DNA of 64,000 nt from an uncultured Pseudomonadota bacterium (lineage in GTDB: Bacteria; Vulcanimicrobiota; Vulcanimicrobiia; Eremiobacterales; Eremiobacteraceae): positions 384,001 to 448,000 of the forward strand of contig CAVTNB010000001.1 in assembly GCA_963736005.1 (NCBI GenBank), in the 5' to 3' direction. The position numbers were made by a program, and so were the translations under genes. The notes below the pieces were generated by a model, which saw only the letters and a list, made by a program, of their open reading frames with translations, was not told where the DNA came from and searched no databases. Positions 30,915 to 50,520 of this stretch are shown here, in pieces; within the stretch, counting starts at the first letter, position 1, and each line of letters starts with the position of its first letter.

Positions 30915-30930
30915 TGTAGAGCAGCCTCCT

Positions 30931-32775: not shown

Positions 32776-35550
32776 TTACTTGATCTTCACGGAATAGTTG
32801 AAATCGATCGTTCGAAGGGGCAAGCCGAAACGCTCCGTCGCCTGCGCCCCGAAGAACGGCTGGTAATCGGTGGGCTGCGCGAAACTGTTGAGGGGCTGCG
32901 GATAACCTTCGCCGATGAGACCACGATAGTCCGCATAATTCTGCCACAGATTGTCAACGTTGGTGGTGAAGGTGCCCTGGCCCACGGGCACGCTGATACT
33001 TAGATCCGAATACGTGTAGGCCGGCAAATCACTGGGATTGTTCTCGGATACATGATAGGTTGTGAGTTGGGCCTCAATGTCGCGCCAAAACGTATAGTCG
33101 AGGGTGTAGGACCATTTGTGCAGCGGAACCGCAGGAATCTGCGAGTTGGGGATGAGGATGAGGCTGCCTCCGAAATTGGGGTTGATGAGTGCTGGGTCGC
33201 TGGATTTGAGTTCGGTGGATTCAGTCGCGTACGTGTAGTCGATAAAGAACGGACGGGTTATTCTGACCCTGCCGGTAAGGTCGATGCCGCGCGCAAGTGT
33301 ATGGCCGATGTTGACCGCACCGTTGACCCCGATGAGCGTCAACGCTTGCGCCGCTGAGATACCGCACACGTTTTTGACCGCGTTGACGTAAGGTGTCGGG
33401 TCAAAGGGAACGGTCAGCACCGAAAGCGGCAGGTTGAGATTTTCATAAATTTGTTCGAAGATGTTTTGATTATAGATCGTCAACTGGGCCGTAGTATCGC
33501 CGGCGAAACGGTGCCCGATGCTAAACTCTTGGTCAACACCTTGTTCGGGTTTTAACAATGATGACGGGACGCTGCCCACCGCGTTCGAGAGGTTACCAGA
33601 ACACGAGACATGCCCAAGGAACGTTCCGACCGCCGACGGGATAAACGACGATTCGACATCGGCGGGGAACGGCTCGGTCGACGTCTCTCCGCCGGCCAGA
33701 CGGAACACGTTGTTTCCTTGTGCGTACACAAAGGCTAGACGAGGGTCGACGAACGACGAGTGCGTGATGGTGGCATTCTTGAACCAGATATTGCCGTAGG
33801 TCGTGAGATGAGAGTTGATCGGGTGCCAGGCGTCGCGCAGGAAATAAGAGGTCTCGTGAACGACAGGAGCCGGTTGTTGGGCCCCATTTTGTTGAAAATA
33901 GTAGGCCGAGTTCTCCCAGAAGTAGCCGAACCCGAACTCGTTGTTTTTTCCAAGAAGATCATCGGACAGCGTTACGCCCGTGTTGCTTGCCTGCTCGAAC
34001 GTCCAAGCAGCATTGTCCGTGGGGACGGCTGTGAACGGAAGCTGAGCCGTGCGGTCGGTAGAGTCTCTGTACGTGTTCGTGAAACTGTTGATCGTGAACG
34101 TGCTCGCGCCGACAGTCTGCTCGTAGCGTAGACCATAGTCATTGGCACGAAGCGCTTGCCACGAGGTGCCCGCGCCCTGCCAGCCGTCGTTGAGATTTGC
34201 ATATTGTTGCGGCGTGACGCACACGGGTGGAGTGCCCGGCGGTGGCGTTGGCACATCGGGCTGGCCGTTGGGGCCGGTACCCGGCGTGCTTCCATTGGCA
34301 TTCGTGCCAGGCTGAAACTTCTTTTTGTTGATAGTATTGCAGGGGTCTGTGCCGGATGCCGCGGCGGCCGCCAGTTGATTCTGTCCGCTCGCAAGGGCAA
34401 CTTCGTACGGCAAGTAATCGTTGTCGCCGTTCCCGGTCTTGTCATCCCACCACGCGCTGCTGAGCCACGTGAACGTCAGATGCGACGCGTCGCTGAAGTT
34501 CATTTGCCCCTTCAAGAGCGTACTCTTCAACGTCAGCGAACTGTCATCCGGATAGTATCCGAGCGCCCGAACCGCGGGATCAGTCGCATACGGATCGAAC
34601 GCGGCCGACGCTTGGTACATGTAATCGTGCTTGAAGAAGCCTTCCTGGCCTTGCGTTCCAAGAGCCAAAGCGTAGCCGAACTTGCCCCCTTGCGTCGAGC
34701 CCGTGGCCGTGATGGCACTGCTCAGGTTGTCCCACGTGCCATAGCCTTGCGTGAATGTCGCGGTCGGATGCAGCGTGGGGTTGAGCGTCTGCATGTCGAC
34801 GACGCCACCGATGGCGTCGACGCCGTAAAGGTCCGAACCCGAGCCGTACAGCACCTTGACATCCTCGAGCCCGAACACCGGCGATAGTTGAAACTGGTAG
34901 GCGCCGCTGAAACCTGGTCCTATGGGGTTGCCATCGATCAGGGTCGTCGTCTCCAATTCCCCAATGCCTCTGATGTCAATGGTTTGCGAGTCCCCTGCCG
35001 TCGCGCCGTCGGATCCCCCGTTCACGATCCCCGGCAGTTTTCGTAGCGCGTCTCCGGCTTTGTAGATGCCTTGGCTCGATAGAGATTGAGCCGAAAGCGA
35101 TGTTGAGATGACAGCCGCGGTCTGCAGCGAAGCGGAACCGTGTATCGTCGTCCGCCCTAGCAGTTTGACTCCCGACGTCACGCCCTGCGAACGAGCGAGC
35201 ACGAGCGTCACGTTTTGGATCTGTCCGCTCGCAAGCGGAAATCGATCCGAAGCCGTGGTCACGTATCCGGTCAAACTGATGATGAGCTCGTACGATCCCG
35301 GCAACAAGTTCTCAAGAGTGAAATTCCCATGCGTGTCGGTAAGCGTCTTCGCCATCGTCGGCCCATCGGCCACGACCCTCACCCCGAGAAGTGGCAAGCC
35401 GCTGCCACCTTCGATAACTTGGCCGCTGATCGAAGCCGTGTCGGTCGTTGCCGCGCCGGCGGCCGCGGAAAATGTCAGAATGCAAAGCACCAAGCTGGAG
35501 ATGAAGAAGACGTTTATCAGAAAAGTGGAATGGCATCGTCGCATCTTCAC
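32776..35550 (-). CDS. TonB-dependent receptor with N-terminal carboxypeptidase-regulatory-like domain
   Basis: Signal peptide; plug motif DALRKLPGI...IDIRG...IDGNP, YGVDAIGGVV, LKPEQG; barrel-like C-terminus. Confidence 0.88.
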   Translation of the reverse strand: MKMRRCHSTFLINVFFISSLVLCILTFSAAAGAATTDTASISGQVIEGGSGLPLLGVRVVADGPTMAKTLTDTHGNFTLENLLPGSYELIISLTGYVTTASDRFPLASGQIQNVTLVLARSQGVTSGVKLLGRTTIHGSASLQTAAVISTSLSAQSLSSQGIYKAGDALRKLPGIVNGGSDGATAGDSQTIDIRGIGELETTTLIDGNPIGPGFSGAYQFQLSPVFGLEDVKVLYGSGSDLYGVDAIGGVVDMQTLNPTLHPTATFTQGYGTWDNLSSAITATGSTQGGKFGYALALGTQGQEGFFKHDYMYQASAAFDPYATDPAVRALGYYPDDSSLTLKSTLLKGQMNFSDASHLTFTWLSSAWWDDKTGNGDNDYLPYEVALASGQNQLAAAAASGTDPCNTINKKKFQPGTNANGSTPGTGPNGQPDVPTPPPGTPPVCVTPQQYANLNDGWQGAGTSWQALRANDYGLRYEQTVGASTFTINSFTNTYRDSTDRTAQLPFTAVPTDNAAWTFEQASNTGVTLSDDLLGKNNEFGFGYFWENSAYYFQQNGAQQPAPVVHETSYFLRDAWHPINSHLTTYGNIWFKNATITHSSFVDPRLAFVYAQGNNVFRLAGGETSTEPFPADVESSFIPSAVGTFLGHVSCSGNLSNAVGSVPSSLLKPEQGVDQEFSIGHRFAGDTTAQLTIYNQNIFEQIYENLNLPLSVLTVPFDPTPYVNAVKNVCGISAAQALTLIGVNGAVNIGHTLARGIDLTGRVRITRPFFIDYTYATESTELKSSDPALINPNFGGSLILIPNSQIPAVPLHKWSYTLDYTFWRDIEAQLTTYHVSENNPSDLPAYTYSDLSISVPVGQGTFTTNVDNLWQNYADYRGLIGEGYPQPLNSFAQPTDYQPFFGAQATERFGLPLRTIDFNYSVKIK

Positions 35551-35590: not shown

Positions 35591-36658
35591 TCATTGCGTT
35601 GCGTGGAGCCCCACGCGATGCTTGTTGATGGGGTCTAAGAGCCCCTGAATATCCGGCGAATTCACGTTAGCCGGCGTGGCTGCCGTGACGCCGGTGTTGA
35701 TAAATCTTGGCGTGCTTATGCCGGCTGCGGCGAGGACACCATAGGCCACGCCGCCATAGCCCATTTGAAATGGATCCTGCAAGATGATGCCATCGACGAC
35801 ACCTGCTCGCAGCTCGCCGACAAGTTGCGGTGATGGGTCGAAGCCAACCAGTGAGACCTTGGTCGACTCTACGTGGTTCTCACGAAACGCCGTGACTGCG
35901 CCTTGAAGGGTCACGAGAGAATCGGCAAAGTAGCCGGCCAACTTGGGAAAGCGTGTCAAGGTGTCGGCGACGATGCCGATCGGCTTGACTGATTGATCGC
36001 CTGCTGCGTCTTTGTGCGCGACGAGTTGAAGTCCGGGATATTTCTTGAGGCCTTCCAAGAAACCCGAATCGCGGAGCGTCAGCGATCCAACGCCGCTCAA
36101 GAAGGTCGAATACGCGACCTGGCCCGCGGCGGTGCCAGTTTTCCGCTTGATCGCGGCGGCGAGAGTGTCTGCTGCCAAGAGTCCACCGGCGTGATTGTCA
36201 GTAGCCAGAAAGGTTGTGTAGGCATTCGTATTGGCCGCCGAGTCAATGAGGATCACCTTGATGCCGGCCGCCGTAACCTTTTCGATTGTGGCATCCAACG
36301 CGGTGACACTTGTCGGGGCGAGGACGAGAAAGTCCGGCTTCTTTGCCAAGGCGTCTTCGACGAGGGCAATCTGCCCTTGAATATTGGCCTCCGAATTTGC
36401 GCCTGTAAACTGCAATCCGCGCAGGCCAAGCTGTCCGTTTGCGAGGTGTCCCCCCGCGAGGACAGTCTGCCAATAATCCGAGTTTGGCGTCTTTACAATG
36501 AAGAGAAAGCGCAATGCGCCGAGGGAAGACGTCTTCGTTGGGGTCGAACATCCGGGCAAACTCAAACTGCCCGCGGCACTTACCGCAAGGCCAGCAAGGG
36601 CTCCGGTTGCTAAGAGCTTTCGGCGACTTATCCTAGATCGGTTTTGGAAACCCGCCAC
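35591..36658 (-). CDS. Sugar ABC substrate-binding protein, Tat lipoprotein
   Basis: SRRKLL Tat motif, LPGC lipobox, ATDNHAGG, VGFD, QDPFQMGY. Confidence 0.9.
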   Translation of the reverse strand: MAGFQNRSRISRRKLLATGALAGLAVSAAGSLSLPGCSTPTKTSSLGALRFLFIVKTPNSDYWQTVLAGGHLANGQLGLRGLQFTGANSEANIQGQIALVEDALAKKPDFLVLAPTSVTALDATIEKVTAAGIKVILIDSAANTNAYTTFLATDNHAGGLLAADTLAAAIKRKTGTAAGQVAYSTFLSGVGSLTLRDSGFLEGLKKYPGLQLVAHKDAAGDQSVKPIGIVADTLTRFPKLAGYFADSLVTLQGAVTAFRENHVESTKVSLVGFDPSPQLVGELRAGVVDGIILQDPFQMGYGGVAYGVLAAAGISTPRFINTGVTAATPANVNSPDIQGLLDPINKHRVGLHATQ

Positions 36659-36791
36659 GCGATGTCACCGCCGGTTTCGTTTCACAAAGAGAGGATGCAC
36701 GAACCCTGAGAGAGCATCATTGCAAGGTTGCCAATACTATTGCAGAATGCGCACTACCTGCATCTGCAATCTCAGCAACTTAGGTGATATC

Positions 36792-36806
36792 TTGCGCATA
36801 GCGCAA
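36792..36806. promoter_or_regulatory. 15-bp palindrome, candidate IclR operator
   Basis: TTGCGC-ATA-GCGCAA in the divergent promoter; degenerate second copy TTGCAGAATGCGCAC near 36740. Confidence 0.55.
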
Positions 36807-36815
36807 AACAACTAA

Positions 36816-37628
36816 ATGGCTGTTCGAACGAGAAGCAATGGGAGACTCATAAACTCCCTTTCGCGCGGCGTCGACATCTTGCGCATGCTCGCGCAAGCGC
36901 AAGCCCCACTGGGCGTCACTGACCTGGGCGAACGCCTGCACGTGGATCCAAGCACCGCATACCGACTCCTCGCAACGTTGGAGGCCCAGGGACTCGTCAA
37001 GCAAGAGCTCGATTCGAGGAAATACTCAGTCGGGTACGGAGTACTCGAATTTGCAAACGCTTTGCTGCGCCGGATGAGTGTCGTCGCGCTTGCCGATCCA
37101 TTTCTTGTTTCGATCACGGCTGATACCGGAGAGAGCACTCACGTAGCGGTGCTCGAGGGCGCGAGAGCGGTTTTTGTGGCGCGTCAGTCAGGCGCCGGAA
37201 TTTTGAGAGTCGAAACGACGGTTGGCAGTTCGGAGCCGGCTTACTGCACAGCGGTCGGCAAAGCGCTGCTCATCGATCACCCCGACGCCGACCTCCAGAC
37301 GCTTTTTCCAAAGGAATCCCTAACGCGTCATACCCCGCAGACAATCACGACCATTGAAGATCTCACTGCGGAACTCGAGCGGATTCGGCGCAACGGCTAC
37401 GCGTACGACGACGAAGAATTGCATCCGGGGGTGCGTTGTCTCGCTTTTCCCATTCGAGATCATCGCGGGCGCGTTACCGCGTCCTTTGGCCTCTCCGCCC
37501 CCGCAGCGCGTCTCACGCGCGAGCACCTACCAACGCTCGTGAAGGTGGTCAGCGCTGCCGCGGACAGCATTTCATTTCAACTCGGCTACCGCACAGAACA
37601 GGTTCCAAAGACGTCTAGAGGCAGGTAA
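36816..37628 (+). CDS. IclR-family transcriptional regulator
   Basis: SLSRGVDIL, STAYRLLATL, YCTAVGKALL, GYAYDDEE. Confidence 0.95.
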   Translation: MAVRTRSNGRLINSLSRGVDILRMLAQAQAPLGVTDLGERLHVDPSTAYRLLATLEAQGLVKQELDSRKYSVGYGVLEFANALLRRMSVVALADPFLVSITADTGESTHVAVLEGARAVFVARQSGAGILRVETTVGSSEPAYCTAVGKALLIDHPDADLQTLFPKESLTRHTPQTITTIEDLTAELERIRRNGYAYDDEELHPGVRCLAFPIRDHRGRVTASFGLSAPAARLTREHLPTLVKVVSAAADSISFQLGYRTEQVPKTSRGR

Positions 37629-37631
37629 GTC

Positions 37632-39440
37632 ATGCGCATGACCGGTGGACAAATTGTCGCAGAGTACCTGATCCGCGAGGGAATGCCGTATCTTTTCGGC
37701 GTCCCTGGGCACGGCAACACCGCACTGCTTGACGCCTTCGTGGACCATCGCGACAAAATCACGGTGATGCAGGCAATCCACGAACAAGGCGCCGCTCACA
37801 TGGCTGACGCCTACTATCGAGTCGCCCGCCGGGCATGCGGCGTGTTTACCTCGATTGGACCTGGCGCTGCGAACACAGCCATGGGCGTGGCGAACGCGTA
37901 CATTGACTCCATCCCTCTTCTTCTCTTGACGGGTTCGGTGCATACCTACATGCGCGGCCGCGGTGTCTTGCAGGAACTCGAGCGCACGCACTGGGCTAAC
38001 TTTGCTCGTATGATGGAGCCCGTCGTCAAACGTTGGTGGCAACCGAGCCGCGTTGACCAATTACCCAACGTGCTCCATTTGGCGTTCAACGTGATGCTCG
38101 AAGGTCGGCGAGGCCCCGCGTACATCGACCTGCCGATGGACGTCCAAGCCGAGGCTGCCGAAATCGAATCGCTTCCAGAGCCGCGCGCGCGCCGGCCGAG
38201 TGGGCGCGTTCACGGCGACCCTGAACTCATCGATCGCGCCGCAAAGCTCTTGCTCGAAGCCAAACGTCCGCTGCTGATCGTTGGCGGCGGCGCTATTGCC
38301 TCTCAAGCAGAATCTGAGGTAGCCGCCGTTGCGGAATTCCTCGGTGCGCCTGTGACCGTCACGTGGATGGGCAAAGGCGTCATCCCAGAGGATCATCCGT
38401 TGTATGCATGGCCATGCGGCGATCTCGGCTCGATTTCGGGGAACACCTTGGCGCGCGAAGCCGACGTTATCTTGAGCGTTGGGTGCCGCTTCACCGATCG
38501 CAGCGCTTCCTCGTTCCGCCGAGACGTCACGTTTAACATTCCCCCCACAAAACTCGTCCACATCGACCTCGATCCCTACGAGATTGGCAAGAATTATCCG
38601 GTTGAGATCGGCATCGTCGGCGACGCCAAGGCAACGCTTGCCGGACTTTTAAGTTCGCTGCATGACTACGCCAAGCCAAATGATTATCGAAATTCAAAAT
38701 ACTTTGCGCACCTGACCGAACTGAAGCGCGCGTGGGATGAGGCGTTGCGGCCCATGCGGGAGAGCAATAACTCGCCAATGACGATTTCGCGAGCGCTCGC
38801 CGAGACTCGTCGCGTCCTTGACCGCGACGCCATCGTTGTCACCGGTGCGGGCAATCCTCAAAGCCAGGTATTCACAGAGTTTCCGGTCTACGGTTCCGCG
38901 CAGCATATCACCGCCGGCGGCTTCTCGGCAATGGGATTTGAAGTGCCAGGGGCCATCGGTGCGAAACTGGCCGCACCAAATCGTCAGGTCGTGGCGATCG
39001 TCGGCGACGGCAGCTTCTTGCAGACGATTCAAGAGCTCTCGATGGCCGCTCAATACGATATTCCGGCCGTCTTCCTCGTCATGAATAACTTCGGGTGGGA
39101 GTGCATCAAGAATCTGCAAATGACGCAGTTCGGACCAGATCGCGTCCTCGCAACAAATTTCAAAAAACGCGATGGCACGCCGTTCTCCGCAAACCTCGCC
39201 AAAGTTGCCGAGGGCTTTGGCTGCTTCGGCGAACGCGTGGAGCAACCGGAGCAGCTTGCCCCAGCGTTGAAACGCGCGCTCGCGTCAGGTCGCCCCGCGG
39301 TGGTCGAGGCGTTGTGTAGCCGGGAACTCCCGTATAGCGGGCTGACGACCACCGGTTGGTGGGACGTCACCGTGCCTGCATATCACAAGGACAAACGCGC
39401 CGCCTACGAAGCTGCCCGATCGGAAGAGGCACTCACCTAA
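37632..39440 (+). CDS. ThDP-dependent enzyme, IolD-like / acetolactate-synthase superfamily
   Basis: FGVPGHGN, HEQGAAHMA, TSIGPGAAN, GDGSF...NN ThDP motif; iol context. Confidence 0.8.
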   Translation: MRMTGGQIVAEYLIREGMPYLFGVPGHGNTALLDAFVDHRDKITVMQAIHEQGAAHMADAYYRVARRACGVFTSIGPGAANTAMGVANAYIDSIPLLLLTGSVHTYMRGRGVLQELERTHWANFARMMEPVVKRWWQPSRVDQLPNVLHLAFNVMLEGRRGPAYIDLPMDVQAEAAEIESLPEPRARRPSGRVHGDPELIDRAAKLLLEAKRPLLIVGGGAIASQAESEVAAVAEFLGAPVTVTWMGKGVIPEDHPLYAWPCGDLGSISGNTLAREADVILSVGCRFTDRSASSFRRDVTFNIPPTKLVHIDLDPYEIGKNYPVEIGIVGDAKATLAGLLSSLHDYAKPNDYRNSKYFAHLTELKRAWDEALRPMRESNNSPMTISRALAETRRVLDRDAIVVTGAGNPQSQVFTEFPVYGSAQHITAGGFSAMGFEVPGAIGAKLAAPNRQVVAIVGDGSFLQTIQELSMAAQYDIPAVFLVMNNFGWECIKNLQMTQFGPDRVLATNFKKRDGTPFSANLAKVAEGFGCFGERVEQPEQLAPALKRALASGRPAVVEALCSRELPYSGLTTTGWWDVTVPAYHKDKRAAYEAARSEEALT

Positions 39441-40457
39441 ATGCCAGCGCAGCCTATCGGTCTGGCGGTGTTCGGCGCCGGGCGGATTGGCACGGTCCAC
39501 GCCCACAACGCGGCCAACCTGCCGGACGTCAAGCTCGTCGGCGTGGCTGATATCGATCGCACCGCGGCCCAGCGGTTGATCGATACAACCAACGCAGGGC
39601 GGGTCGATAGCACCGCCGCCTTTTTGACCGATCCGAGCGTTTCGGGCGTCGTCATCGCCACCCCAACCGCCTCGCATGCCGCGCTCATCGAGCAGGCCGC
39701 CGTTTCGGGCAAACACGTTTTGTGCGAGAAACCAATCTCACTTGACCTCGCCACCACCCAAGGCGCGATCGCCCGGGCCCAGCAGGCGTCAATTATCCTC
39801 CAGGTGGGGTTTCAGAGACGCTTCGATGCGCAATTTCAGCTTGCTCGGCGCAGTGTCGAGTCTGGGGAACTCGGCACCCCACGCTTTCTGCGCTTGGTAG
39901 GCCGCGATCATCGGATGCCTTCTCTCGACTATCTCCGCACGAGCGGCGGACAGTTCAAAGATCAAATGATTCACGAGTTCGATCTCGCTCGATGGCTCAT
40001 GGCTCCTGCATCCGTCATCCAGGTTTTCGCGGAGGGCTCAGCGGTTATCGAACCCGCGCTTGCCCAGTTCGGCGACGCCGATACCACCGTGGTCGTCTTG
40101 CGCTTTGACAGCGGTGCGTTAGGGATCATTGACGGCTCGCGAGAGGCGGTGTACGGGTACGATGTGCGTGGCGAAATTGTCGGATCGAAGGGCATGGTGC
40201 TCTTTGGGGACGAGCGTCTCACGAGCGGCAAGGTGCTCGATACGAGTGCAGCGACGGCAGAGGTGGAATCATTTGTCGAACGCTTCGAGGTTGCGTACCG
40301 AGCAGAACTCGCCGATTTCGTCGACGCTATTGCCGGCGCACGCGCCCCTCGGGTTGGCGGCAACGACGCATTGGAAGCGCTGCGACTCGCCGAAGCGGCG
40401 ACGCGCTCGTTTCAGGAGCATCGCCCTATCACGCTGTCAGAGACAACTGATGGCTAG
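39441..40457 (+). CDS. iolG: Inositol 2-dehydrogenase (Gfo/Idh/MocA)
   Basis: GAGRIG, CEKP, GFQRRFD, SGGQFKDQMIHEFD, YGYDVRGE. Confidence 0.85.
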   Translation: MPAQPIGLAVFGAGRIGTVHAHNAANLPDVKLVGVADIDRTAAQRLIDTTNAGRVDSTAAFLTDPSVSGVVIATPTASHAALIEQAAVSGKHVLCEKPISLDLATTQGAIARAQQASIILQVGFQRRFDAQFQLARRSVESGELGTPRFLRLVGRDHRMPSLDYLRTSGGQFKDQMIHEFDLARWLMAPASVIQVFAEGSAVIEPALAQFGDADTTVVVLRFDSGALGIIDGSREAVYGYDVRGEIVGSKGMVLFGDERLTSGKVLDTSAATAEVESFVERFEVAYRAELADFVDAIAGARAPRVGGNDALEALRLAEAATRSFQEHRPITLSETTDG

Positions 40458-40467
40458 TGGAGGGCGA

Positions 40468-41274
40468 ATGTCGCCGCTGTTGGTTCGCGGCGCCGATATA
40501 CCCGAGGGCGAGCTCGTTTCGATCGCTCCAAGCGGCCAAGCGTGGCGCTACATCCGGTTTCGCGCGACCAGACTGCGCACCGACGGCATTATCCGCGGCG
40601 AAACCGCGGGCAACGAAATGGCCCTCGTGGTTATTTCGGGCAGCGTGCATGTGGCTTCTCCCGAGGGATCGTGGAAAAATGTCGGTCAACGCGCCGATCC
40701 TTTCTCAGGCCCACCATCGGCCGTGTACCTGCCGTCGTCGACAAGCTATGAAATCGTCGCAGCCAGTCACGCGGAGATCGCCATCTGCGAGGCGCCGGGC
40801 CCGAAGCCTTATCCCGCTCGGAGGATCGAGCTGGCCAGCGATGCGGGCTACCTTCGTGGAGAAGGGCACGCGCAGCGGCGCATTTACAACATTCTCATGG
40901 ATGAGGATGGTGCCAATAGCCTCTTCTTGACCGAAGTGATAACGTTTCCAGGCAACTGGTCGAGCTATCCGCCGCACAAGCACGATACCGACAATCCTCC
41001 GGTCGAGTCTCAACTCGAAGAACTCTACTACTATCGCGCGCAACCACAGCAAGGCTTTGCTTTTCAACGCATTTACACTGAATCCGGCGATCTTGACGAA
41101 ACGATCACGGCACACAACACCGACGTTGTCCTCGTGCCTCGCGGTTACCATGTGTGTGCCGCCGCCGCCCAGTATTCGATCTATTATCTCAACGTGCTCG
41201 CCGGTCCAAGACACGTCTACCACATGACCTTCGATCCGGCGCATGCCTGGATTAAAGAAGGCTGGACGTGGTAG
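40468..41274 (+). CDS. iolB: 5-deoxy-glucuronate isomerase
   Basis: GNWSSYPPHKHD, LEELYYY, VPRGYH, YYLNVLAGP. Confidence 0.93.
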   Translation: MSPLLVRGADIPEGELVSIAPSGQAWRYIRFRATRLRTDGIIRGETAGNEMALVVISGSVHVASPEGSWKNVGQRADPFSGPPSAVYLPSSTSYEIVAASHAEIAICEAPGPKPYPARRIELASDAGYLRGEGHAQRRIYNILMDEDGANSLFLTEVITFPGNWSSYPPHKHDTDNPPVESQLEELYYYRAQPQQGFAFQRIYTESGDLDETITAHNTDVVLVPRGYHVCAAAAQYSIYYLNVLAGPRHVYHMTFDPAHAWIKEGWTW

Positions 41275-42155
41275 ACGAGATTGAAGTGGGCACGGCGGCG
41301 GTCAACTGGGGTTTCGATCCGCTCTACACATGGGTGACGACCCCAAGGTTTGACGACCTGCTCGATCAGATGGCAGCAGCAGGTTACGCGGGCACGGAAA
41401 TCGGCGACAATTTCCCACGCGACCTCGATACAGTGCGCGGTCAGCTAGATGCACACCGCCTGCGGGCCGCCGCTTCATTTCAAGCGGTGGACTTGCGGGA
41501 TCGCCAGACGCACGAACTGGTTGTGCGCGATGTCCTCAAGGTCGCCGACCGTTTGGCGGCACTCGGCTCAAACGTTCTCATTCTTTCGGATAAGCCGTCG
41601 GCCGCGCGTCTTGAAATTGCCGGCCGAGTCGCCGCAGATGGGAGCGACGGCTTGAGCGGAACGCAATGGCGCGTGCTGTGCGATGGACTCAATCGCGCCG
41701 GCGAGCGCCTCGCGAACCAGGCGATCCGCGCGGTCTTTCATCCTCATGTCGGCACGTTCGTGGAGACACGCTCGGAAATCGACCAGCTCTGCGAGCTCAC
41801 CGATCCGGCGTTCCTCGGCCTGTGTCCGGATACCGGGCACTTAGCGTATGCTGGCGTCGATCCCGAAGCCATCTTTCACGACTACGCTGCTCGCATTGGA
41901 TACGTTCATCTCAAGGACGTGGATCGCGTCAAGCTCGAGGCCGTACGGTCCCAAGGCATCGACTTCGTGGCGGCGGTGCGCATGGGACTTTTTGTGGAAC
42001 TCGGCACGGGGATCGTGCCGATCGAACGCATCGTGCGCCACCTGCGCGAAGCGCGCTACGCAGGCTGGATCATCGTGGAACAAGATGCGCCAAGCGACCC
42101 CAACACCGCGGCGCGACGCAATCGAGAATACCTGCGCCGAGAGTTTGGCTTATGA
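41268..42155 (+). CDS. iolE: Inosose dehydratase-like TIM barrel (IolE family)
   Basis: GYAGTEIG, FHPHVGT.VE, LCPDTGH, VHLKD, ELGTG, WIIVEQD. Confidence 0.75.
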   Translation: MVDEIEVGTAAVNWGFDPLYTWVTTPRFDDLLDQMAAAGYAGTEIGDNFPRDLDTVRGQLDAHRLRAAASFQAVDLRDRQTHELVVRDVLKVADRLAALGSNVLILSDKPSAARLEIAGRVAADGSDGLSGTQWRVLCDGLNRAGERLANQAIRAVFHPHVGTFVETRSEIDQLCELTDPAFLGLCPDTGHLAYAGVDPEAIFHDYAARIGYVHLKDVDRVKLEAVRSQGIDFVAAVRMGLFVELGTGIVPIERIVRHLREARYAGWIIVEQDAPSDPNTAARRNREYLRREFGL

Positions 42156-43009
42156 ACGTACGCGAGCTGCGGCGCACCGGCAACGAAATCCGCCGTCTGA
42201 CTCTGCAGGCTGTGCATCACGCGGGCGCAGGACACATCGGTGGGGTGTTTTCGGCAGCGGATATGCTTTCGGCGCTGTACTTTTCCGAACTTCGTATCGA
42301 TCCAACGAAACCACTCTGGCCGGATCGGGACCGATTCGTTCTCTCGAAGGGGCACGCCGCAATCGGGCTCTATGCCACCCTGGCGCTGCGCGGTTATTTC
42401 CCCATCAAGGAGCTCGCGACGTTTGACGCGATCAATTCGCGCCTGCAAGGCCATCCAGATATGACAAAATTGCCCGGACTCGACATGTCGACCGGCTCGC
42501 TTGGCCAGGGTCTCTCCCCCGGCGTCGGGATGGCGCTCGGCGCGCGTCTGCTCGGCAAGGATTTTCAAACGTGGGTGATGCTTGGGGATGGCGAAATTCA
42601 AGAGGGCCAAATTTGGGAAGCTGCATTTACGGCAGCTCGGTATCAACTGGAGAACCTTATCGCAATCTTAGACTGGAATCATTTGCAGCAGTTCGGATGG
42701 GCGACTGCAGAGGGGTACGGGAGCACGGCGCGGCTCGATCCGGTCGCTGCGCCGCAGGAAAAATGGCGCGCGTTCGGCTGGCGCGTCCTCGAGTGCGATG
42801 GCCATAACATTGAGGATTTTCTCCGCGCATGTCGCGGCGCGAGGGAGCCCGCAGGTCGTCCGTCGATCATCATCGCGCGCACAATAAAAGGAAAGGGCGT
42901 CTCGTTCATGGAGAATGAGTTCGCCTGGCACTCAAAGCCCTTCGGTGATGAGGAGTTCGCGCGAGCACTGGCTGAACTGCACGCTGCCGACGCAGCGGCA
43001 GCGGTTTAA
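42152..43009 (+). CDS. Transketolase, N-terminal (ThDP-binding) subunit
   Basis: GHIGG, DRFVLSKGHA, LQGHP, STGSLGQG, GDGEIQEGQIWEA; ATGA overlap with iolE. Confidence 0.92.
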   Translation: MNVRELRRTGNEIRRLTLQAVHHAGAGHIGGVFSAADMLSALYFSELRIDPTKPLWPDRDRFVLSKGHAAIGLYATLALRGYFPIKELATFDAINSRLQGHPDMTKLPGLDMSTGSLGQGLSPGVGMALGARLLGKDFQTWVMLGDGEIQEGQIWEAAFTAARYQLENLIAILDWNHLQQFGWATAEGYGSTARLDPVAAPQEKWRAFGWRVLECDGHNIEDFLRACRGAREPAGRPSIIIARTIKGKGVSFMENEFAWHSKPFGDEEFARALAELHAADAAAAV

Positions 43010-43012
43010 CCT

Positions 43013-43957
43013 ATGGCTATTTCAAAGGCGCTGGCGCAGCGCGACGTCTTCGGCGACACGATGATCGAGTTGTGTGCCAAAGACGAGCGGGTCGTCCTCC
43101 TTGACGGCGACCTCGCAAATTCGACGAAGTCGGATAAACTGGCCGCGGCGAATCCGAGTCGCTTCTTCATGATGGGCATCGCAGAGCAAAATCTCGCTGG
43201 GGTTGCCGCCGGGCTCGCGAGCGTTGGGCTCAAGCCCTGGATCGCATCCTTTGCCGCCTTCTTAGCAACGCGCGATCTCGACCAAATCCGAGTGGTCATC
43301 GCTCAACCGAAACTCAACGTTCGGCTTGCCGCGCATTATAGTGGCATCCTGACCGGATTCACAGGCAAGACGCATCAAGTCGTCAATGACATCGCGATCA
43401 TGCGCTCGCTGCCCAACATGGCGGTGGTCGCGCCGTGCGACGGTATCGAAGCGCGCGCGGCGATGCTGGTGCTCAACGAATACGTTGGCCCGGTCTACTT
43501 GCGGCTGACGCGCGATGCCATCGCAACCATCTTGCCGCAAGATTACACATTCGCACTTGGCCGAACATTGTTACTGCGGGAGGGCTCGGACATCGCTCTC
43601 ATTTCGACCGGTTCGCAAACGGTTCGCACGCTGGAAGCGGCGGGCGATCTTGCCTCGTTGGGGATTTCGGCGAGCGTGCTCCACGTTCCGACCATCAAGC
43701 CAATCGACGCCGACGCCATCGTTGCGGCGGCCTCGCACGTACCATGCGTGTTGACCTGCGAAGAGCACTCCATTCTCGGCGGCCTTGGTGGCGCCGTCGC
43801 CGAGATTCTCAGCGAGCGCCACCCCATGCCCGTGATCAGACTCGGATTGCGCGACGTCGATGGCGAAAGTGCCCCCAACGATCAGCTCATCAAAAAGTAT
43901 GGGTTGAGCTCAGCGCATGTCGTGCAAGCCGCGCTGGACCTCGTGCGCAAACCGTGA
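43013..43957 (+). CDS. Transketolase, C-terminal subunit
   Basis: GIAEQN, GKTHQ, GPVYLRL, TIKPID, EEHSILGGLG. Confidence 0.92.
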   Translation: MAISKALAQRDVFGDTMIELCAKDERVVLLDGDLANSTKSDKLAAANPSRFFMMGIAEQNLAGVAAGLASVGLKPWIASFAAFLATRDLDQIRVVIAQPKLNVRLAAHYSGILTGFTGKTHQVVNDIAIMRSLPNMAVVAPCDGIEARAAMLVLNEYVGPVYLRLTRDAIATILPQDYTFALGRTLLLREGSDIALISTGSQTVRTLEAAGDLASLGISASVLHVPTIKPIDADAIVAAASHVPCVLTCEEHSILGGLGGAVAEILSERHPMPVIRLGLRDVDGESAPNDQLIKKYGLSSAHVVQAALDLVRKP

Positions 43958-45024
43958 CGACCATTGCCGTCTTGCCCGGAGACGGTATCGGCCCCGAGGT
44001 GACGCGGGCTGCGGTGCAGGTCTTACGCTTCGTGCGCCCCGATCTCGAGTGCATCGAGGCTGACGTGGGCGCAGCCGCTCTGCGCGCTGGAAAAGCTCCG
44101 CTCCCGCAACAAACGCGCGATCTGTGCGCGCGAAGCGCCGCCATCTTATTCGGTGCAGTCGGGCTCCCCGAGTACGAGAATCTGCCACTGAGCAAGCGGC
44201 CGGAAAGCGCGCTCTTTACGCTGCGTCACGACTTCGAGCTTTTCGCAAACCTGCGCCCAGTTCGAGTCTTTCCTGGCCTGGAGACTGCGTCAAGCCTGCG
44301 CCCCGACCTCGTGACCGGTTTGGATCTAATCGTCGTTCGCGAGCTGACCAGCGGTATCTACTTCGGGCAACCCAAAGAGCGGCGCGTCGTCTCAGGAATC
44401 GAAGAAGCCGTCGATACGATGTATTACAGCGCTCCGCAGATCGAGCGCATCGCGCGCGTCGCATTCGCCCTGGCGCGAGGACGGCGTCAACACGTGACGT
44501 CGGTGGACAAACACAATATCTTGGAGACGTCCGGCCTGTGGCGAGAGGTCGTGACAAAAGTTGCGCGCGACTATGCGGACGTTTGCGTCGAGCATCTCCT
44601 GGTTGACAACGCGTCGATGCAGCTGATCCGCCGTCCGAAAGACTTCGACGTCATCCTCACCGAGAACATGTTCGGCGACATTCTGTCGGACGAAGCGGCG
44701 ATGCTAACGGGTTCTGTCGGAAATCTGCCGAGTGCCAGTCTTGGCACGAGAGCTTACGCCGATCGTCAATTCGGCATGTACGAGCCGATCAGCGGCACCG
44801 CGCCCGATATTGCCGGCAAGGGAATTGCTAACCCGACAGCGGCCATTCTTTCTGCGGCGATGCTCTTGCGGCACAGCCTCGCCGATCAGCTCGCAGCACT
44901 GCGAATCGAGACAGCCGTCGCGAAAGTTTTTCAACAAGGAGCGCGCACCGCCGAACTGGCGTCTCGCGGGGCAGCCTTCTACAACACGCAGGAATTTACG
45001 GAGCTGATCGTGTCGAAGCTCTGA
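43954..45024 (+). CDS. leuB: 3-isopropylmalate dehydrogenase family (beta-decarboxylating dehydrogenase)
   Basis: LPGDGIGPEV, RPESALF.LR...LFANLRP, RELTSGIYFG, ENMFGDILSDEA, EPISGTAPDIAG; GTG overlaps the transketolase TGA. Confidence 0.9.
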   Translation: MTTIAVLPGDGIGPEVTRAAVQVLRFVRPDLECIEADVGAAALRAGKAPLPQQTRDLCARSAAILFGAVGLPEYENLPLSKRPESALFTLRHDFELFANLRPVRVFPGLETASSLRPDLVTGLDLIVVRELTSGIYFGQPKERRVVSGIEEAVDTMYYSAPQIERIARVAFALARGRRQHVTSVDKHNILETSGLWREVVTKVARDYADVCVEHLLVDNASMQLIRRPKDFDVILTENMFGDILSDEAAMLTGSVGNLPSASLGTRAYADRQFGMYEPISGTAPDIAGKGIANPTAAILSAAMLLRHSLADQLAALRIETAVAKVFQQGARTAELASRGAAFYNTQEFTELIVSKL

Positions 45025-45049
45025 CGATCTCTGTCGACGAGTCTGGCGC

Positions 45050-45496
45050 CTAAAACACTTCCACCGGAAAGGCGCCGGCTCCAGAGAAAAGGCTCTTCAC
45101 CTGATCGACTTTGCCGCTTGCGTTATAGCCCGCGATACTTCGCCCCTCCGAGAGCGCCCGCGTGAAATCCTCAACGCGAGTATCTGGGATGTCGAGTTCG
45201 CTGAGCAACTCAGCCGTCGACGGCTCGTGGAAAGCCCCGACGCGAGGAATGTTTTGGGTCAGACCGGGAACCCCGGTTCCGCCGAACCCCGTGATGATGC
45301 CGCCCTGCGTCCCTATGGTGGCCGCTTCAGCATCTCCGGAGACGAATTGCGCACCACTGTTAATCAAGTCATCTGCAGGCGTTTCTGGCGTAATGACGCG
45401 CAGTCGCTCGATGTCGAGTCCACTGGATTTCAGGGCGCCTGTGAGTTTCGAAAGGCCATCATGGTCAGCGAAAATACCAACCACCACACTACCCAT
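45050..45496 (-). CDS. Hypothetical protein (general-stress-protein-like)
   Basis: AAGGA SD; VVVGIF...L...G N-terminus. Confidence 0.7.
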   Translation of the reverse strand: MGSVVVGIFADHDGLSKLTGALKSSGLDIERLRVITPETPADDLINSGAQFVSGDAEAATIGTQGGIITGFGGTGVPGLTQNIPRVGAFHEPSTAELLSELDIPDTRVEDFTRALSEGRSIAGYNASGKVDQVKSLFSGAGAFPVEVF

Positions 45497-45588
45497 GCTC
45501 GTGTCCTTTCTTTACGAAAGAGCCCGAAGCGATTCGCCGCAACCCCAGGCGCGGCCTAGCAGGGCGATTGTCCCGAAAAATACGAGCC

Positions 45589-46464
45589 TTACGTGTGCCA
45601 ATAGACGAGCACCGAACGCAAAATGCTCTCGAGACCGGTTTCCTTACGATCCGGTATCAAATTTGCATATCGCTCGGCACCGCTGCGCTGCGACACCCGA
45701 TACAAACCGGCGGCGAGCATCGGTGTCACCAGGCTCAGCACCCACACCGCAAACGCCCCTTTCGGCGCTTCGCAATCTTTGAGCGGGTGGAGTTCCGGGT
45801 ATCGCGTTGTGGCTGAGGAGATCACCAGCGCCGCGTCTTGGACCGCCTGCACCACGTCGTGGGGGTTTGTGGCACATGCAGCTCGCAGCTGTGTAAAGAT
45901 ACGTTCCCTATCGACTGCGGGAGCAAGCGATGAAGAGAATGCCTTGTCTGGCGGCGTTGGCGCTTCACCGAGGCTTTTGACCGGGAGCCGAGTCCAATCC
46001 AAGAACTCTGGCGTGATGATCCCTAGCCACCGCCGGCGCGGACCGGGTTTCTTATTCTCCCATGTCGTGCGAAAGTACATGATAAACGCGGTGGCAAGCA
46101 GTTGTCGGCATGCAACGTATGAGGTCGCAATCAGAAGCGGATAATCTCGCAGCACTGCTTTAGCCATGGCGTCGGCGAGTTTGCGCTCGCCGAAGGCTCC
46201 AATGCACGCTGGTTTGCGTTCCAGCCTGCGCAGCATGCCCTCGCCGACGACGAAGAATTTTGTGAAGCTCGCCTCGATATAGCTGCCGATCAAGACGGCC
46301 GGCACTTCTTGGACACCGGCAATTGCCAGATAGAAAGCAAGTTTATCCACCGGCACACCCGGCGGAAGACGCTTCTCCACCTCTAAGATGGCGCGAATTC
46401 GGTCTTCCATCGCATGCGGAATCTGGCAGTCGTAGGAGGGCGCGGGCGGGAGCCCAACGAGCAA
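45589..46464 (-). CDS. Hypothetical protein
   Basis: 291 aa ORF; no recognised motif. Confidence 0.6.
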   Translation of the reverse strand: MLVGLPPAPSYDCQIPHAMEDRIRAILEVEKRLPPGVPVDKLAFYLAIAGVQEVPAVLIGSYIEASFTKFFVVGEGMLRRLERKPACIGAFGERKLADAMAKAVLRDYPLLIATSYVACRQLLATAFIMYFRTTWENKKPGPRRRWLGIITPEFLDWTRLPVKSLGEAPTPPDKAFSSSLAPAVDRERIFTQLRAACATNPHDVVQAVQDAALVISSATTRYPELHPLKDCEAPKGAFAVWVLSLVTPMLAAGLYRVSQRSGAERYANLIPDRKETGLESILRSVLVYWHT

Positions 46465-47878: not shown

Positions 47879-48545
47879 AGGTGTCGCTCTCGAAATCCGT
47901 GAGCGTCCGATCGACGCCGCCGGTCGAGCCGGCGAGTAAATCGAACGTGATCGTGCTTTGGCTTGGATTATCACCCAAGCTCATGGACGCGATATAATTG
48001 GTGAGAACGGGCGGCGGCGAAATCAAGAGCGCCTTGATCACATCCGGCACGACGAGTGCGGCTGTCACGTTCTTCGGGACTCCGTTAATCGCGGTTATTG
48101 CCGCCGGTTCAAAAGCTCGCATCAGCTGAAACGACGTCCCGTTCGAGTTGGGCTCAAGCCAGTAGACGTCAAATCCTTGCCAAGCCGGGTAGCCTTTATT
48201 TGGATCTGTCGGGTTTGTGACGACGTGGAATTGGCCGGTTCCGTCATCCGCGGTCGCGACCACCAGCGCTTGGACACTGGTCGGCGAGCTCCCAGGAGCA
48301 CTGCAGATGACCACGGGCGTGATCGAGCAGCCCATCACGCCGCTCGTATCTCCTTGGCTGAAGTCCTTGCGAATCTCGTACAGCGCGACGGCGGCCATAT
48401 TGACCTCATCGACTTGCGACTGCACTTGCATCGGAGCCTTGAGCATCAACGGCAGGATCATGACCATGGAGGTCATGATGACCCCAAGGATCACGGCGAC
48501 GGTGAGCACCTCTGCAATTGAGAAACCGCGTTGCGTGCGCGTCAT
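47865..48545 (-). CDS. Prepilin-type N-methylation protein (PilW-like)
   Basis: QRG|FSIAEVL. Confidence 0.85.
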   Translation of the reverse strand: MTRTQRGFSIAEVLTVAVILGVIMTSMVMILPLMLKAPMQVQSQVDEVNMAAVALYEIRKDFSQGDTSGVMGCSITPVVICSAPGSSPTSVQALVVATADDGTGQFHVVTNPTDPNKGYPAWQGFDVYWLEPNSNGTSFQLMRAFEPAAITAINGVPKNVTAALVVPDVIKALLISPPPVLTNYIASMSLGDNPSQSTITFDLLAGSTGGVDRTLTDFESDTYARN

Positions 48546-48973
48546 GACACTTGTTGCGTCGCGAAGCTTTGGACGCTGTACGTGCGCAGAAACCCGTCCT
48601 CCACCCACTGCACGGTAACCGTACATTGCTGAAGCCTGGTATATGGAGCGACGTTGACGCAGGTCCCGTTGAGGCTGAAGTTACCCGGAGAGGCATTGGT
48701 CGCGCCGGAGCCCGTTACTGAAAGACCGCCGTCGATCGGGATGGTCGGCGCCGCCGGCAGCGAGCGTCCTTGCTCGATGGACGATCGGAGCGCGTCCATA
48801 TATTGCTGACCCGCACTGACGGCTTGCAGGTAGACGTTTGCGTGCCGTATTTCGTGGATTGAATATGGGAAAAGCCCGAAGAAGGTAGACAGCCCGATGC
48901 CAAAGATAGCTATCGAGATCAGCGCCTCGAGTAACGTGAATCCCCGACCATTCCCGCGGTTAGGTCTACCCAT
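48542..48973 (-). CDS. Prepilin-type N-methylation protein (PilV-like)
   Basis: RG|FTLLEALISIAI; C-terminal TVTVQW. Confidence 0.85.
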   Translation of the reverse strand: MGRPNRGNGRGFTLLEALISIAIFGIGLSTFFGLFPYSIHEIRHANVYLQAVSAGQQYMDALRSSIEQGRSLPAAPTIPIDGGLSVTGSGATNASPGNFSLNGTCVNVAPYTRLQQCTVTVQWVEDGFLRTYSVQSFATQQVS

Positions 48974-49035
48974 CCAGCTAGTGACCCCGACCTTGGTCCC
49001 CCAAATAGTCAATGCCCAAATCCCCGTGACTCTCG

Positions 49036-50520
49036 TCACCCAACCGCCGCGGGCGTCTTGCGCCGTTCAATATGATTTGCTATGTCTCGATACGTCGGCT
49101 CGATGCCAATCAGTTTCTCGCGCCAAGCGGTCGCAGCTCGGAGGTCGCCCTTGTTCTCAGCCAGACGCCCTAGGTTGTAGAGCGTTTCATTGTAGTGCAG
49201 CTTGCTCAGACCTGGCATCGTCAGTGCCTGAGCGAGTTTGCTCTCCGCTTCGTCGTAGTGCCGGCTGCCGGCAAGGTGCAGCGCCTCGATGTTCTGAGCG
49301 AGAGCTTTGCCATGTTTGGTCCGGCTGAGCCCCGCGGCAATGCGCAGCACGTCAACGTACCGTTTCATCTCGAGCAGCGCCAAGGCGACGAGGTAGGCAA
49401 TGAAGGGATCGGTTTGTTTCCCCTCCATTGCCCGGTTGAGAAATGTCAGCGCTCCCTTGGTATCACCTGATTCGCCTAGGCTCTGACCGATCACCAGCCG
49501 ATAGTAGCCCGGTGTTGGGCTCGCCATCGCTCGCGACCACCACGACCGAACGAGCTTGTCGACTCCACCTGTGTGCAGCAGCTGGGCCGCTTCGACAGCT
49601 TCGGTGGACGACAAGAGGCCCTGCGCGGCCAAAAGCTCGAGCATCGCGAGCGTTCCCTCATAACGCGCCGGCGCATCGGAAGGGGTCACAGGGGCATCGG
49701 GTTGCTTCTGGTGCGCGCTCGCGACACCTGCGCCCGATGCGACGGCGTTCGCTACCTCCGCCGAACCCGTGCACAGTTGGTCGATCCTCGCAAGCTGCTT
49801 CGCAATCGTCTCAGCGCTGCGCTCGCGATCCTTGGCCAATTGTTCCAGGGCATTTGCCGCAGACTCCACCTGCGCTTTGCGAGTCTGAAGACCCGCCACG
49901 AGCTCGCGCAGCTCGTCCGCGCCCATAATGTGCTGCTTGTCTTTTTCCGCGCGGTCGACCGCCTCGGCGATGCGACACACCCGCGCGGCCATGCCATCGG
50001 CTGCTGTGTCAAGGTCCTTGGCCTTCGATCCGATGTCGGCAAGCTGCGCGTCCGCTCCAGCCGCGGATTGACGGATCGAGTCGAGCACCGTGCGCAAACT
50101 TGTCGCTTCGCGCGCGATGGAAGCGAAAAGTCCCTTCACCGTGCGCACTTCTTCTTCAATCGCGCTCAACGCCAAACGAGAAGAATCAATTTCGGTCCCT
50201 AAACTGCTCGCCGCGCGTTCTCTTTCCCCCGCGAACGCATCGACGTGCGCGAGCAGGTCTTCCATCTGAGCAAACGCTTCCGCACGTTTGGTTGCCAGTT
50301 CCTCAAGCGCGTCATCCTCGCGAAGCTTTGCCTGGAGAGTCTCCTCGAGTTGTCTGCGCAGATCGAGAACGCTCGATTCAAGCGAAACACTTTGCTCCTG
50401 CAGCGAAGCAATTGCCTCGGTAGCTACTGCAAGTTCGTCTTGCAGTAGCTGTCGCCGCCGCTGCGTCTCAATAACTGAAGCCGCCACCCGCTCAAGAGCG
50501 GGCGTTAGTTCGGTGTCCAT
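49036..50520 (-). CDS. Coiled-coil + TPR protein
   Basis: About 250 aa heptad-rich region, then TPR-like helices (LYNLGRLAE..GD...A). Confidence 0.75.
   Translation of the reverse strand: MDTELTPALERVAASVIETQRRRQLLQDELAVATEAIASLQEQSVSLESSVLDLRRQLEETLQAKLREDDALEELATKRAEAFAQMEDLLAHVDAFAGERERAASSLGTEIDSSRLALSAIEEEVRTVKGLFASIAREATSLRTVLDSIRQSAAGADAQLADIGSKAKDLDTAADGMAARVCRIAEAVDRAEKDKQHIMGADELRELVAGLQTRKAQVESAANALEQLAKDRERSAETIAKQLARIDQLCTGSAEVANAVASGAGVASAHQKQPDAPVTPSDAPARYEGTLAMLELLAAQGLLSSTEAVEAAQLLHTGGVDKLVRSWWSRAMASPTPGYYRLVIGQSLGESGDTKGALTFLNRAMEGKQTDPFIAYLVALALLEMKRYVDVLRIAAGLSRTKHGKALAQNIEALHLAGSRHYDEAESKLAQALTMPGLSKLHYNETLYNLGRLAENKGDLRAATAWREKLIGIEPTYRDIANHIERRKTPAAVG

Follow-up and report, generated by a model that had tools for sequence, protein, structure and literature searches.

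A split transketolase in an inositol-type operon of uncultured Eremiobacterales: a candidate catabolic route without ATP or aldolase

We find that an operon of eight genes from an uncultured soil bacterium of the Eremiobacterales joins genes of the inositol (iol) type to a split transketolase and a paralog of LeuB. It is probably controlled by its IclR-family regulator and serves to break down myo-inositol or a close cyclitol by a lower pathway that would need neither ATP nor an aldolase, all of whose substrates and products we infer. The operon lies at 36816-45024 of a window of 64,000 nucleotides (the whole stretch of DNA that was analysed, G000:C1:384001-448000), and the genome to which it belongs, G000, comprises 2.84 Mb in 6 contigs and is 84% complete. 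The argument draws on the gene content, the conservation of the operon, the absence of IolC and IolJ, the complementary occurrence of IolC and the transketolase, the altered channel of the transketolase and the paralogy of LeuB, each of which was computed here. Among carbon and phosphorus-linked compounds that derive from plants and soil, inositol is one of the most abundant, and textbooks present its breakdown by bacteria as a single pathway that uses a kinase and an aldolase; in Bacillus subtilis, canonical myo-inositol catabolism runs IolG-IolE-IolD-IolB-IolC-IolJ-IolA.

Gene content and the proposed route

The eight open reading frames (ORFs) are all on the + strand and keep the coordinates at which they were first described in a sequence-only reading of this DNA. 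The gaps at successive junctions are 3, 0, -8, -7, -4, 3 and -4 nt, and both of the overlap motifs reported earlier, ATGA at 42152 and GTGA at 43954, are present, in agreement with the description of one tightly coupled operon. A scan of 36400-45700 found no promoter-like sites and 8 terminator-like sites where 8.7 were expected, and an operator search of 36600-36900 gave a single weak 12-nt palindrome. The 7 runs listed as sharing sampled words are all DNA contigs, with a share of no more than 0.35, and none is RNA.

Families were assigned to the window proteins from NCBIfam model scores, read against the cut-off of each model, and from Pfam domains. The first gene (36816-37628) encodes an IclR-family regulator with HTH_IclR and IclR_C domains, and its position is kept in related operons. 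The second (37632-39440) encodes a thiamine diphosphate (ThDP) enzyme that had initially been identified as IolD. This identity does not hold, as the protein scores 339.8 bits on the IolD model (TIGR04377) against a cut-off of 715, and its best match, acetolactate synthase (ALS), is also below the cut-off (387.7 versus 538); it is an ALS-like enzyme in the place of IolD, for which the context suggests a ring-opening role. The third gene (39441-40457) encodes an IolG-like inositol 2-dehydrogenase with GFO/IDH/MocA domains, which is 9 bits short of the TIGR04380 cut-off (346.3 versus 355), and the fourth (40450-41274), whose ATG at 40450 overlaps the stop of iolG by 8 nt, encodes IolB, 5-deoxy-glucuronate isomerase, which passes its cut-off (TIGR04378, 281.8 versus 205). 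The fifth (41268-42155) encodes an IolE-like TIM-barrel enzyme (TIGR04379, 201.7 versus 290), which belongs to a subfamily of inosose dehydratases that travels with the transketolase. The two subunits of that transketolase follow, the N-terminal (PP-domain) subunit, tktN (42152-43009; Transketolase_N), and the C-terminal (Pyr plus C domain) subunit, tktC (43013-43957; Transket_pyr and Transketolase_C), which belongs to a non-canonical clade. The last gene (43954-45024) encodes the LeuB paralog (TIGR00169, 438.6 versus 353.2), a proposed oxidative decarboxylase of D-malate, an (R)-2-hydroxy-dicarboxylate.

In the route that we propose, IolG, the IolE-like dehydratase, the ALS-like ThDP enzyme (acting for IolD) and IolB would together produce 5-dehydro-2-deoxy-D-gluconate (DKG), of which 5-keto-D-gluconate is the 2-hydroxy analogue. 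With its carboxylate, DKG mimics xylulose 5-phosphate and has the D-threo diol required of a transketolase donor, and the split transketolase would transfer C6 and C5 of unphosphorylated DKG, as a glycolaldehyde unit, to an aldose acceptor. With the simplest acceptor, glyceraldehyde 3-phosphate, this would give xylulose 5-phosphate and leave (R)-3-hydroxy-4-oxobutanoate, which could be oxidised to D-malate by an aldehyde dehydrogenase (ALDH) similar to succinate-semialdehyde dehydrogenase (SSADH) and encoded away from the operon; the LeuB duplicate of the operon would then convert D-malate to pyruvate and CO2 by oxidative decarboxylation. We consider the transketolase step probable, while the LeuB step is a tentative assignment that we would put at somewhat below even.

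Neither a kinase nor an aldolase nor an aldehyde dehydrogenase is found among the eight genes, as the sequence-only reading had stated for a kinase, an aldolase and malonate-semialdehyde dehydrogenase, and the absence of IolC and IolJ extends to the searched genome. The best match to IolC in G000 reaches 169.8 bits on TIGR04382, for which the cut-off is 300 bits; in the control search, IolC was above the cut-off in 3 of 14 known genomes. No match to the class II aldolase PF01116 was found in G000 (at 84% completeness), and none to DUF2090 (PF09863) in any of five Eremiobacterota genomes, G000 included. If the canonical route nevertheless persisted, it would have to use a kinase and an aldolase that both escaped recognition, and the split transketolase would merely rebalance pentose phosphates. 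The candidate for such a kinase is the best IolC match itself, a PfkB-family protein at G000:C1:1844596-1845516, and the genome is 84% complete; the fructokinase model, however, gives this kinase a higher score (209.7 bits), its gene is separated from the operon by 1.4 Mb, and G000 also encodes a full-length housekeeping transketolase. Together with the altered channel of the operon transketolase and the exclusion of IolC by this transketolase in 19 of 19 genomes with IolB, both described below, these observations make a hidden canonical route very improbable.

Conservation of the operon and exclusion of IolC

The tktN protein was used as the query in a scan of species genomes, which returned 80 loci, and the neighbourhoods were compared by tblastn with the window proteins and by conservation between loci. 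The same eight genes are found in the same order at loci L017, L028, L018 and L019 and in genomes G152, G145 and G123, which came from a sample of the phylum. As G040 and G107 are the same records as L019 and L028, the distinct genomes with the operon number 8, including that of the window. The operon proteins are 52-97% identical between the window and the 7 further genomes, and the 8 genomes cover two Eremiobacterota families. The recurrence of an eight-gene order in 7 further genomes indicates that the operon is more than a chance arrangement, and the conservation of gene order, on which the sequence-only reading depended, is borne out within the Eremiobacterota.

The transketolase pair also shares a locus with iol genes outside the phylum, in Chloroflexia (L023, L024 and L042), in Verrucomicrobiota (L051 and L061), at L027 and at NC10-like loci (L032, L037 and L049). 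In four of these loci, two from Verrucomicrobia (L051 and L061), one from Chloroflexia (L024) and L027, the same locus encodes a bona fide IolD (896-936 bits versus 715), and an IolE-like gene (213-230 bits) lies immediately upstream of tktN. IolG and IolB above their cut-offs were confirmed in L051 and L024, the two loci that this check covered; the sequences of L061 and L027 stop about 1-2 kb past tktC.

To compare IolC and the transketolase across the phylum, we used a sample of 151 genomes, which includes the unpublished G132 (for tallies only). IolB is above the cut-off in 19 of the 151 genomes and IolC in 13, and all 13 are within the 19; in at least 12 of the 13 IolC genomes, IolB and IolC lie on one contig and no more than 1.3 kb apart. 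The other 6 genomes with IolB (G000, G107, G040, G123, G145 and G152) are exactly those that carry an orthologous tktC (65-100% identity). Thus, among the 19 IolB genomes, none has both IolC and this transketolase and none has neither, and the co-occurrence of iolB and split transketolase without iolC that the sequence-only reading had pointed to is exclusive in 19 of 19 genomes, which are kin. IolC above the cut-off is likewise found in 0 of the 8 operon genomes and in 0 of 5 genomes with iol-transketolase loci from other phyla. The 6 and the 13 genomes are related to one another (6 genera against 5) and are not independent events, and for that reason we treat the exclusion as a pattern and not as a statistic.

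The transketolase clade and the LeuB paralog

The split transketolase of the operon belongs to a distinct group. The tree was built from 78 tktC sequences with a minimum length of 250 residues, which come from the window, the 80 loci and three added operons. It contains a monophyletic non-canonical clade of 37 sequences, in comparison with 41 canonical sequences. The clade has a motif like AHYSGILTGFTGKTHQ at the point where canonical enzymes read THxGxxVGEDGxSHQ, and the canonical xHxG..GEDG motif is kept in the other 41 split transketolases. Of the 37 non-canonical sequences, 18 have an iol gene in their locus; of the 41 canonical ones, none has. Weak matches to the GFO family (21-28% identity, at L034, L089 and L092) and a 32% TIM-barrel match (at L022) were left out of this count, and the absence of iol genes at several loci means little because their contigs are short.

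Residues were compared in an alignment of five clade members with a tkt paralog of E. coli (numbered one position behind TktA) and with the full-length transketolase of G000; positions are given here in what we take to be TktA numbering, which agrees with that of PMC12016104. The operon enzyme has the three domains of a transketolase and retains the catalytic and cofactor residues, with H26, H66, H100, D155, N185 and H261 in the N half and E411 and H473 in the C half, where R358, S385 and R520 are retained as well. It differs from canonical sugar-phosphate transketolases in the substrate channel, in which His461 and Asp469 are replaced by Tyr and Thr; Ile189, in the N half, is Gln, and Glu468 is variable. 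On these residues, we consider the operon transketolase to have an altered substrate channel. One published case concerns a substrate close to DKG: an E. coli TktA variant, R358I/H461S/R520Q, is reported to have higher activity on 5-keto-D-gluconate (PMC12016104).

The same clade occurs in three loci of cultured Bacillaceae (L043 2334-16598, L054 1432-11785 and L067 3735-15028), in clusters that encode a LacI-family regulator, a tripartite ATP-independent periplasmic (TRAP) transporter, two Zn-dehydrogenases, the split transketolase, an ALDH and TtuC. The best sub-threshold matches of the Zn-dehydrogenases include L-idonate 5-dehydrogenase and IolM. The ALDH is assigned to the SSADH subfamily at L054 and is marginal to it at L067 (662 and 640 bits, respectively, versus 646), and is similar to lactaldehyde dehydrogenase at L043. 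TtuC, a tartrate/D-malate dehydrogenase, is above its cut-off at L043 and L054 (495.8 and 556.5 versus 470.4); at L067 it is represented by a tblastn match of 82% identity. From its gene families, this cluster looks like an undescribed route from an acid of the idonate or 5-keto-gluconate type through tartrate. The conversion of 5-keto-D-gluconate to L-tartrate by a transketolase and an SSADH is described in PMC13527115. By analogy, the ALDH and TtuC of the Bacillaceae cluster fit this published conversion. DKG is 2-deoxy-5-keto-D-gluconate, and the same cleavage would give (R)-3-hydroxy-4-oxobutanoate, whose oxidation would yield D-malate; D-malate and L-tartrate share the (R)-2-hydroxy centre, and tartrate dehydrogenases also accept D-malate. 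A kinase similar to pyrophosphate-dependent phosphofructokinase is also encoded in the L054 and L067 clusters.

Members of the clade are found in other settings as well. At L031 (8120-18492) one occurs with a transaldolase-like gene, four CoA-transferase subunits, an acyl-CoA dehydrogenase and IolB; at L044 (4699-6588) the transketolase is directly followed by an aldehyde:ferredoxin oxidoreductase; at L036 (12140-13351) it is near a UPF0261/Tm-1-like protein; and at L034 (6236-15044) it is accompanied by a TIM-barrel protein, a creatininase-like protein, a Zn-dehydrogenase and Dak1.

We put forward, as a conjecture that we would not yet back at even odds, that the Tyr/Thr split transketolases are a natural family of '5-keto-aldonate transketolases', which would cleave unphosphorylated acids of the 5-keto(-2-deoxy)-gluconate type in ATP-independent cyclitol and sugar-acid pathways of Eremiobacterota, Chloroflexota, Verrucomicrobiota, Methylomirabilota-like lineages and Bacillaceae. 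The C4 aldehyde-acid would be oxidised to D-malate or L-tartrate and then removed by an enzyme of the LeuB superfamily, in Eremiobacterota a captured duplicate of the housekeeping LeuB.

The operon LeuB passes the 3-isopropylmalate dehydrogenase model TIGR00169, as noted above, and is far below the cut-off of the tartrate/D-malate dehydrogenase model TIGR02089 (215.6 versus 470.4). The sequence-only reading had warned that it might simply be the housekeeping leuB and had suggested that a second copy be sought near other leu genes. Such a copy exists: G000 encodes a LeuB of the actinobacterial type (NF002898, 437.5 versus 393) directly after leuC/leuD, at C1:178-181 kb, and therefore the operon LeuB is not the leucine-pathway copy. 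A separate TIGR00169-type LeuB is also encoded elsewhere in G040, G123 and G145. In G152 the second LeuB is frameshifted and split over two frames (L111, G152:C1:579700-581500), possibly through an assembly error, and in G107 the second LeuB-family match is at 34% identity, compared with 34-38% in other genomes of the window's own family. Among 9 other genomes of that family, a TIGR00169-type LeuB and an orthologous tktC both occur solely in G107, which is the sole carrier of the operon.

In each of the 8 operons tktC is immediately followed by the LeuB-like gene, over a range of 63-85% identity, and the two abut in all 5 sampled relatives with the orthologous tktC. The operon LeuBs group as a single clade inside the housekeeping LeuBs of the class, and they are under purifying selection: pairwise dN/dS is 0.11-0.12 for operon LeuBs and 0.10-0.14 for housekeeping pairs, values that are rough as dS is saturated. 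The statement that the dehydrogenase keeps typical LeuB residues is correct, since the pocket residues E84, L87, F88 and I189 are identical in the operon copies and in the housekeeping LeuBs of the class. They align with E88, L91, L92 and V193 of 1a05, which we take to be its isopropyl-pocket residues. Positions 85 and 89 alone shift, from aromatic or aliphatic to small or polar residues in the operon copies. LeuB has a known side activity on D-malate, and the residue pattern fits the use of this side activity, without proving a new specificity.

A different explanation is that the transketolase branch is real and that LeuB is a biosynthetic duplicate that has hitch-hiked at the end of the operon and has no part in the pathway. 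The unchanged pocket and the score above the LeuB equivalog cut-off would be expected of such a gene, and the iol-transketolase clusters of Chloroflexota, Verrucomicrobiota and the L027 type manage without it, as no LeuB-like gene is present in the loci of other phyla within the sequence at hand; moreover, no ALDH is present to form D-malate. A hitch-hiker would not be expected, however, to overlap the tktC stop with its start and to hold this position in all 8 operons at a dN/dS of about 0.11, in genomes that, where examined, keep a separate LeuB, nor to occur in the window's family solely with the operon. The independent link of the clade to TtuC, a LeuB-family enzyme, in Bacillaceae also argues for a role, and we regard hitch-hiking as unlikely. 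TtuC above the cut-off, unlinked to the locus, is found in 3 of 5 genomes with iol-transketolase loci from other phyla, compared with 1 of 14 control genomes, and no ALDH or iol homolog was found beside these genes in the three genomes. The sequence-only reading had ended its route with an aldehyde converted to an (R)-2-hydroxy-dicarboxylate and then handed to a LeuB-family enzyme; this sequence is mirrored by the ALDH and TtuC of Bacillaceae, but in the operon itself there is no ALDH gene, and LeuB has the unchanged pocket and the low TIGR02089 score given above.

Three observations on LeuB and its relatives stand apart. The LeuB of L017 (11806-12872) is without a clean N-terminus, in that its tblastn match begins about 27 residues in and 80 nt past tktC, possibly owing to a frameshift or an assembly error. 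Of the 151 phylum genomes, 108 have a LeuB-family match at E <= 1e-40, and most genomes of family f2 have a close copy of the TIGR00169 type (57-75% identity). ALS is above the cut-off in 25 of the 151, and many genomes are without any ALS-family match; branched-chain amino-acid synthesis may be incomplete or unconventional in the Eremiobacterota lineage.

The substrate, the neighbouring genes and comparison with known systems

Next to the operon and divergent from it, the window encodes components of an ATP-binding cassette (ABC) importer for sugars, all on the - strand: a periplasmic sugar-binding protein (35591-36658; Peripla_BP_4), a permease (31631-32755; BPD_transp_2), which is kept beside related operons, and an ATPase (30860-31690), which is apparently frameshifted and whose longest ORF is without a Pfam match. 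Homologs of the binding protein adjoin the operon in L017, L019 and L028 and the Verrucomicrobia cluster L051. The ATPase is intact in L017 and L028, where it is in one frame with 38% identity to the L051 ATPase. A gene for a TonB-dependent-receptor-like protein of 924 amino acids (32776-35550, - strand; CarboxypepD_reg and Plug domains) lies between the binding protein and the permease. In L017, which is 94%-related, the three transporter genes are contiguous and the TonB-dependent-receptor-like gene does not lie between them. Further away, at 48542-49039 on the - strand, the window encodes a small type IV pilin-like protein with a prokaryotic N-terminal methylation motif, which is flanked by ORFs without Pfam matches.

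Several findings weigh against the inositol route, among them the TIGR02089 score of LeuB, its unchanged pocket, its absence from the loci of other phyla and the kinship of the genomes in the IolC comparison. No ALDH lies in or near the operon: G000 has eight ALDH loci, methylmalonate-semialdehyde dehydrogenase (MMSDH) among them, none of which is operon-linked, and the best match is more than 1 Mb away. G000 is, moreover, only 84% complete. The importer ATPase of the window looks broken, as the L051 ATPase matches it by tblastn in two frames with 26-27% identity; it could be a decayed gene or the product of assembly indels, and such indels could add to the 84% completeness figure. The binding protein matches 4irx, which we take to be a solved myo-inositol binding protein, at a weak 34.6 bits, and its best solved relative, 4rxt (209.5 bits), is uninformative on the ligand. 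Finally, the ThDP, IolE-like and IolG proteins all score under their NCBIfam cut-offs, and myo-inositol may therefore not be the substrate.

That the IolE-like protein scores low is a trait of its subfamily, because its counterparts in other phyla that lie beside a bona fide IolD score 213-230 bits. Ten IolE-like proteins were scanned from the iol-transketolase loci of other phyla; they range over 194-230 bits on TIGR04379, and 9 of them are encoded immediately upstream of tktN, the copy in L042 not being adjacent. No better IolE than the operon copy was found in the 5 Eremiobacterota genomes searched, and an IolD above 715 bits was found in 0 of 5 genomes. The ThDP enzyme is the sole ALS/IolD-family match in each of G000, G001, G003 and G004; it is 78-97% identical across related operons and 52% identical to that of the Chloroflexia locus L042, which shares the ALS-like type. 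We also considered whether the ThDP enzyme and LeuB might be the branched-chain amino-acid genes of the cell and rejected this idea, as the ThDP enzyme is limited to the six operon genomes in the class and many relatives are without any ALS-family gene.

The doubts about the upper enzymes would be met if the same enzyme logic served another substrate, such as a sugar acid or a different cyclitol, with a ThDP enzyme that does not carry out the IolD reaction and a transketolase that still cleaves an unphosphorylated 5-keto acid. Examples of such substrates would be deoxy- and methyl-inositols and a 5-keto-aldonate that is formed by other means. Compared with solved structures, the ThDP enzyme is indeed equidistant from BbmA, glyoxylate carboligase, ALS and cyclohexane-1,2-dione hydrolase (each at 210-240 bits), which gives no assignment, and it stands equally far from IolD; the IolE-like and IolG proteins under their cut-offs, a binding protein nearest to 4rxt rather than to the inositol binder, and the occurrence of the transketolase clade in non-inositol clusters all point in the same direction. 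Yet IolB is above its equivalog cut-off, IolG misses its own by 9 bits, and the clade shares its locus with a bona fide IolD in four loci from other phyla, in two of which (L051 and L024) IolG and IolB are confirmed. In addition, G000 has no further IolD-family or ALS-family gene and no better IolE that could supply the missing steps. We therefore doubt that another substrate is the right explanation and retain myo-inositol or a close cyclitol as the probable one.

If the proposed route is true, ATP would be saved, two carbons would pass straight to the pentose-phosphate pool and four would leave as pyruvate and CO2. It would explain the use of inositol by widespread uncultured soil phyla that are without iolC and iolJ, and would mean that predictors of metabolism that require IolC and IolJ wrongly score such organisms as non-users. 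The non-canonical clade would also be a ready natural catalyst for the 5-keto-gluconate-to-tartrate chemistry that is now sought by mutating ordinary transketolases. A full-text literature search, with subscription journals mostly outside its coverage, returned no description of a transketolase in inositol catabolism or acting on DKG.

The operon resembles the canonical inositol pathway in its IolG-like and IolE-like proteins, IolB, the ThDP candidate for ring opening, the sugar ABC importer and the local repressor. It differs in that the operon is without IolC, IolJ and a linked IolA and has a split transketolase and a LeuB paralog instead, and in that the ThDP enzyme is not an ortholog of IolD. 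The lower pathway would resemble in its chemistry the action of a transketolase and an SSADH on 5-keto-D-gluconate (PMC13527115 and PMC12016104): the transketolase of the operon would act on the 2-deoxy form of that acid, the C4-C5 cleavage would be the same, and in both cases a C4 aldehyde-acid would lead to an (R)-2-hydroxy-dicarboxylate. In those papers, however, full-length enzymes, ordinary or engineered, catalyse this as a side reaction that is used for production, whereas here a natural, dedicated split Tyr/Thr clade is found in catabolic operons.

Two further systems can be compared with the operon. DmlA/TtuC (TIGR02089) is likewise an oxidative decarboxylase of (R)-2-hydroxy-dicarboxylates from the LeuB superfamily and lies beside the same transketolase clade in the three Bacillaceae loci, but the window enzyme is of the LeuB type (438.6 bits on the LeuB model and 215.6 on that of TtuC) and is a recent duplicate of the housekeeping LeuB. 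SqwGH (sulfo-TK) and AptAB, of apiose catabolism, are split or dedicated transketolases of catabolic operons, which cleave a ketose of an unusual kind and transfer the C2 unit to glyceraldehyde 3-phosphate. The likeness to these two is one of described chemistry, and the ketoses differ in that they carry a sulfonate or phosphate tail, while a carboxylate tail is proposed here.

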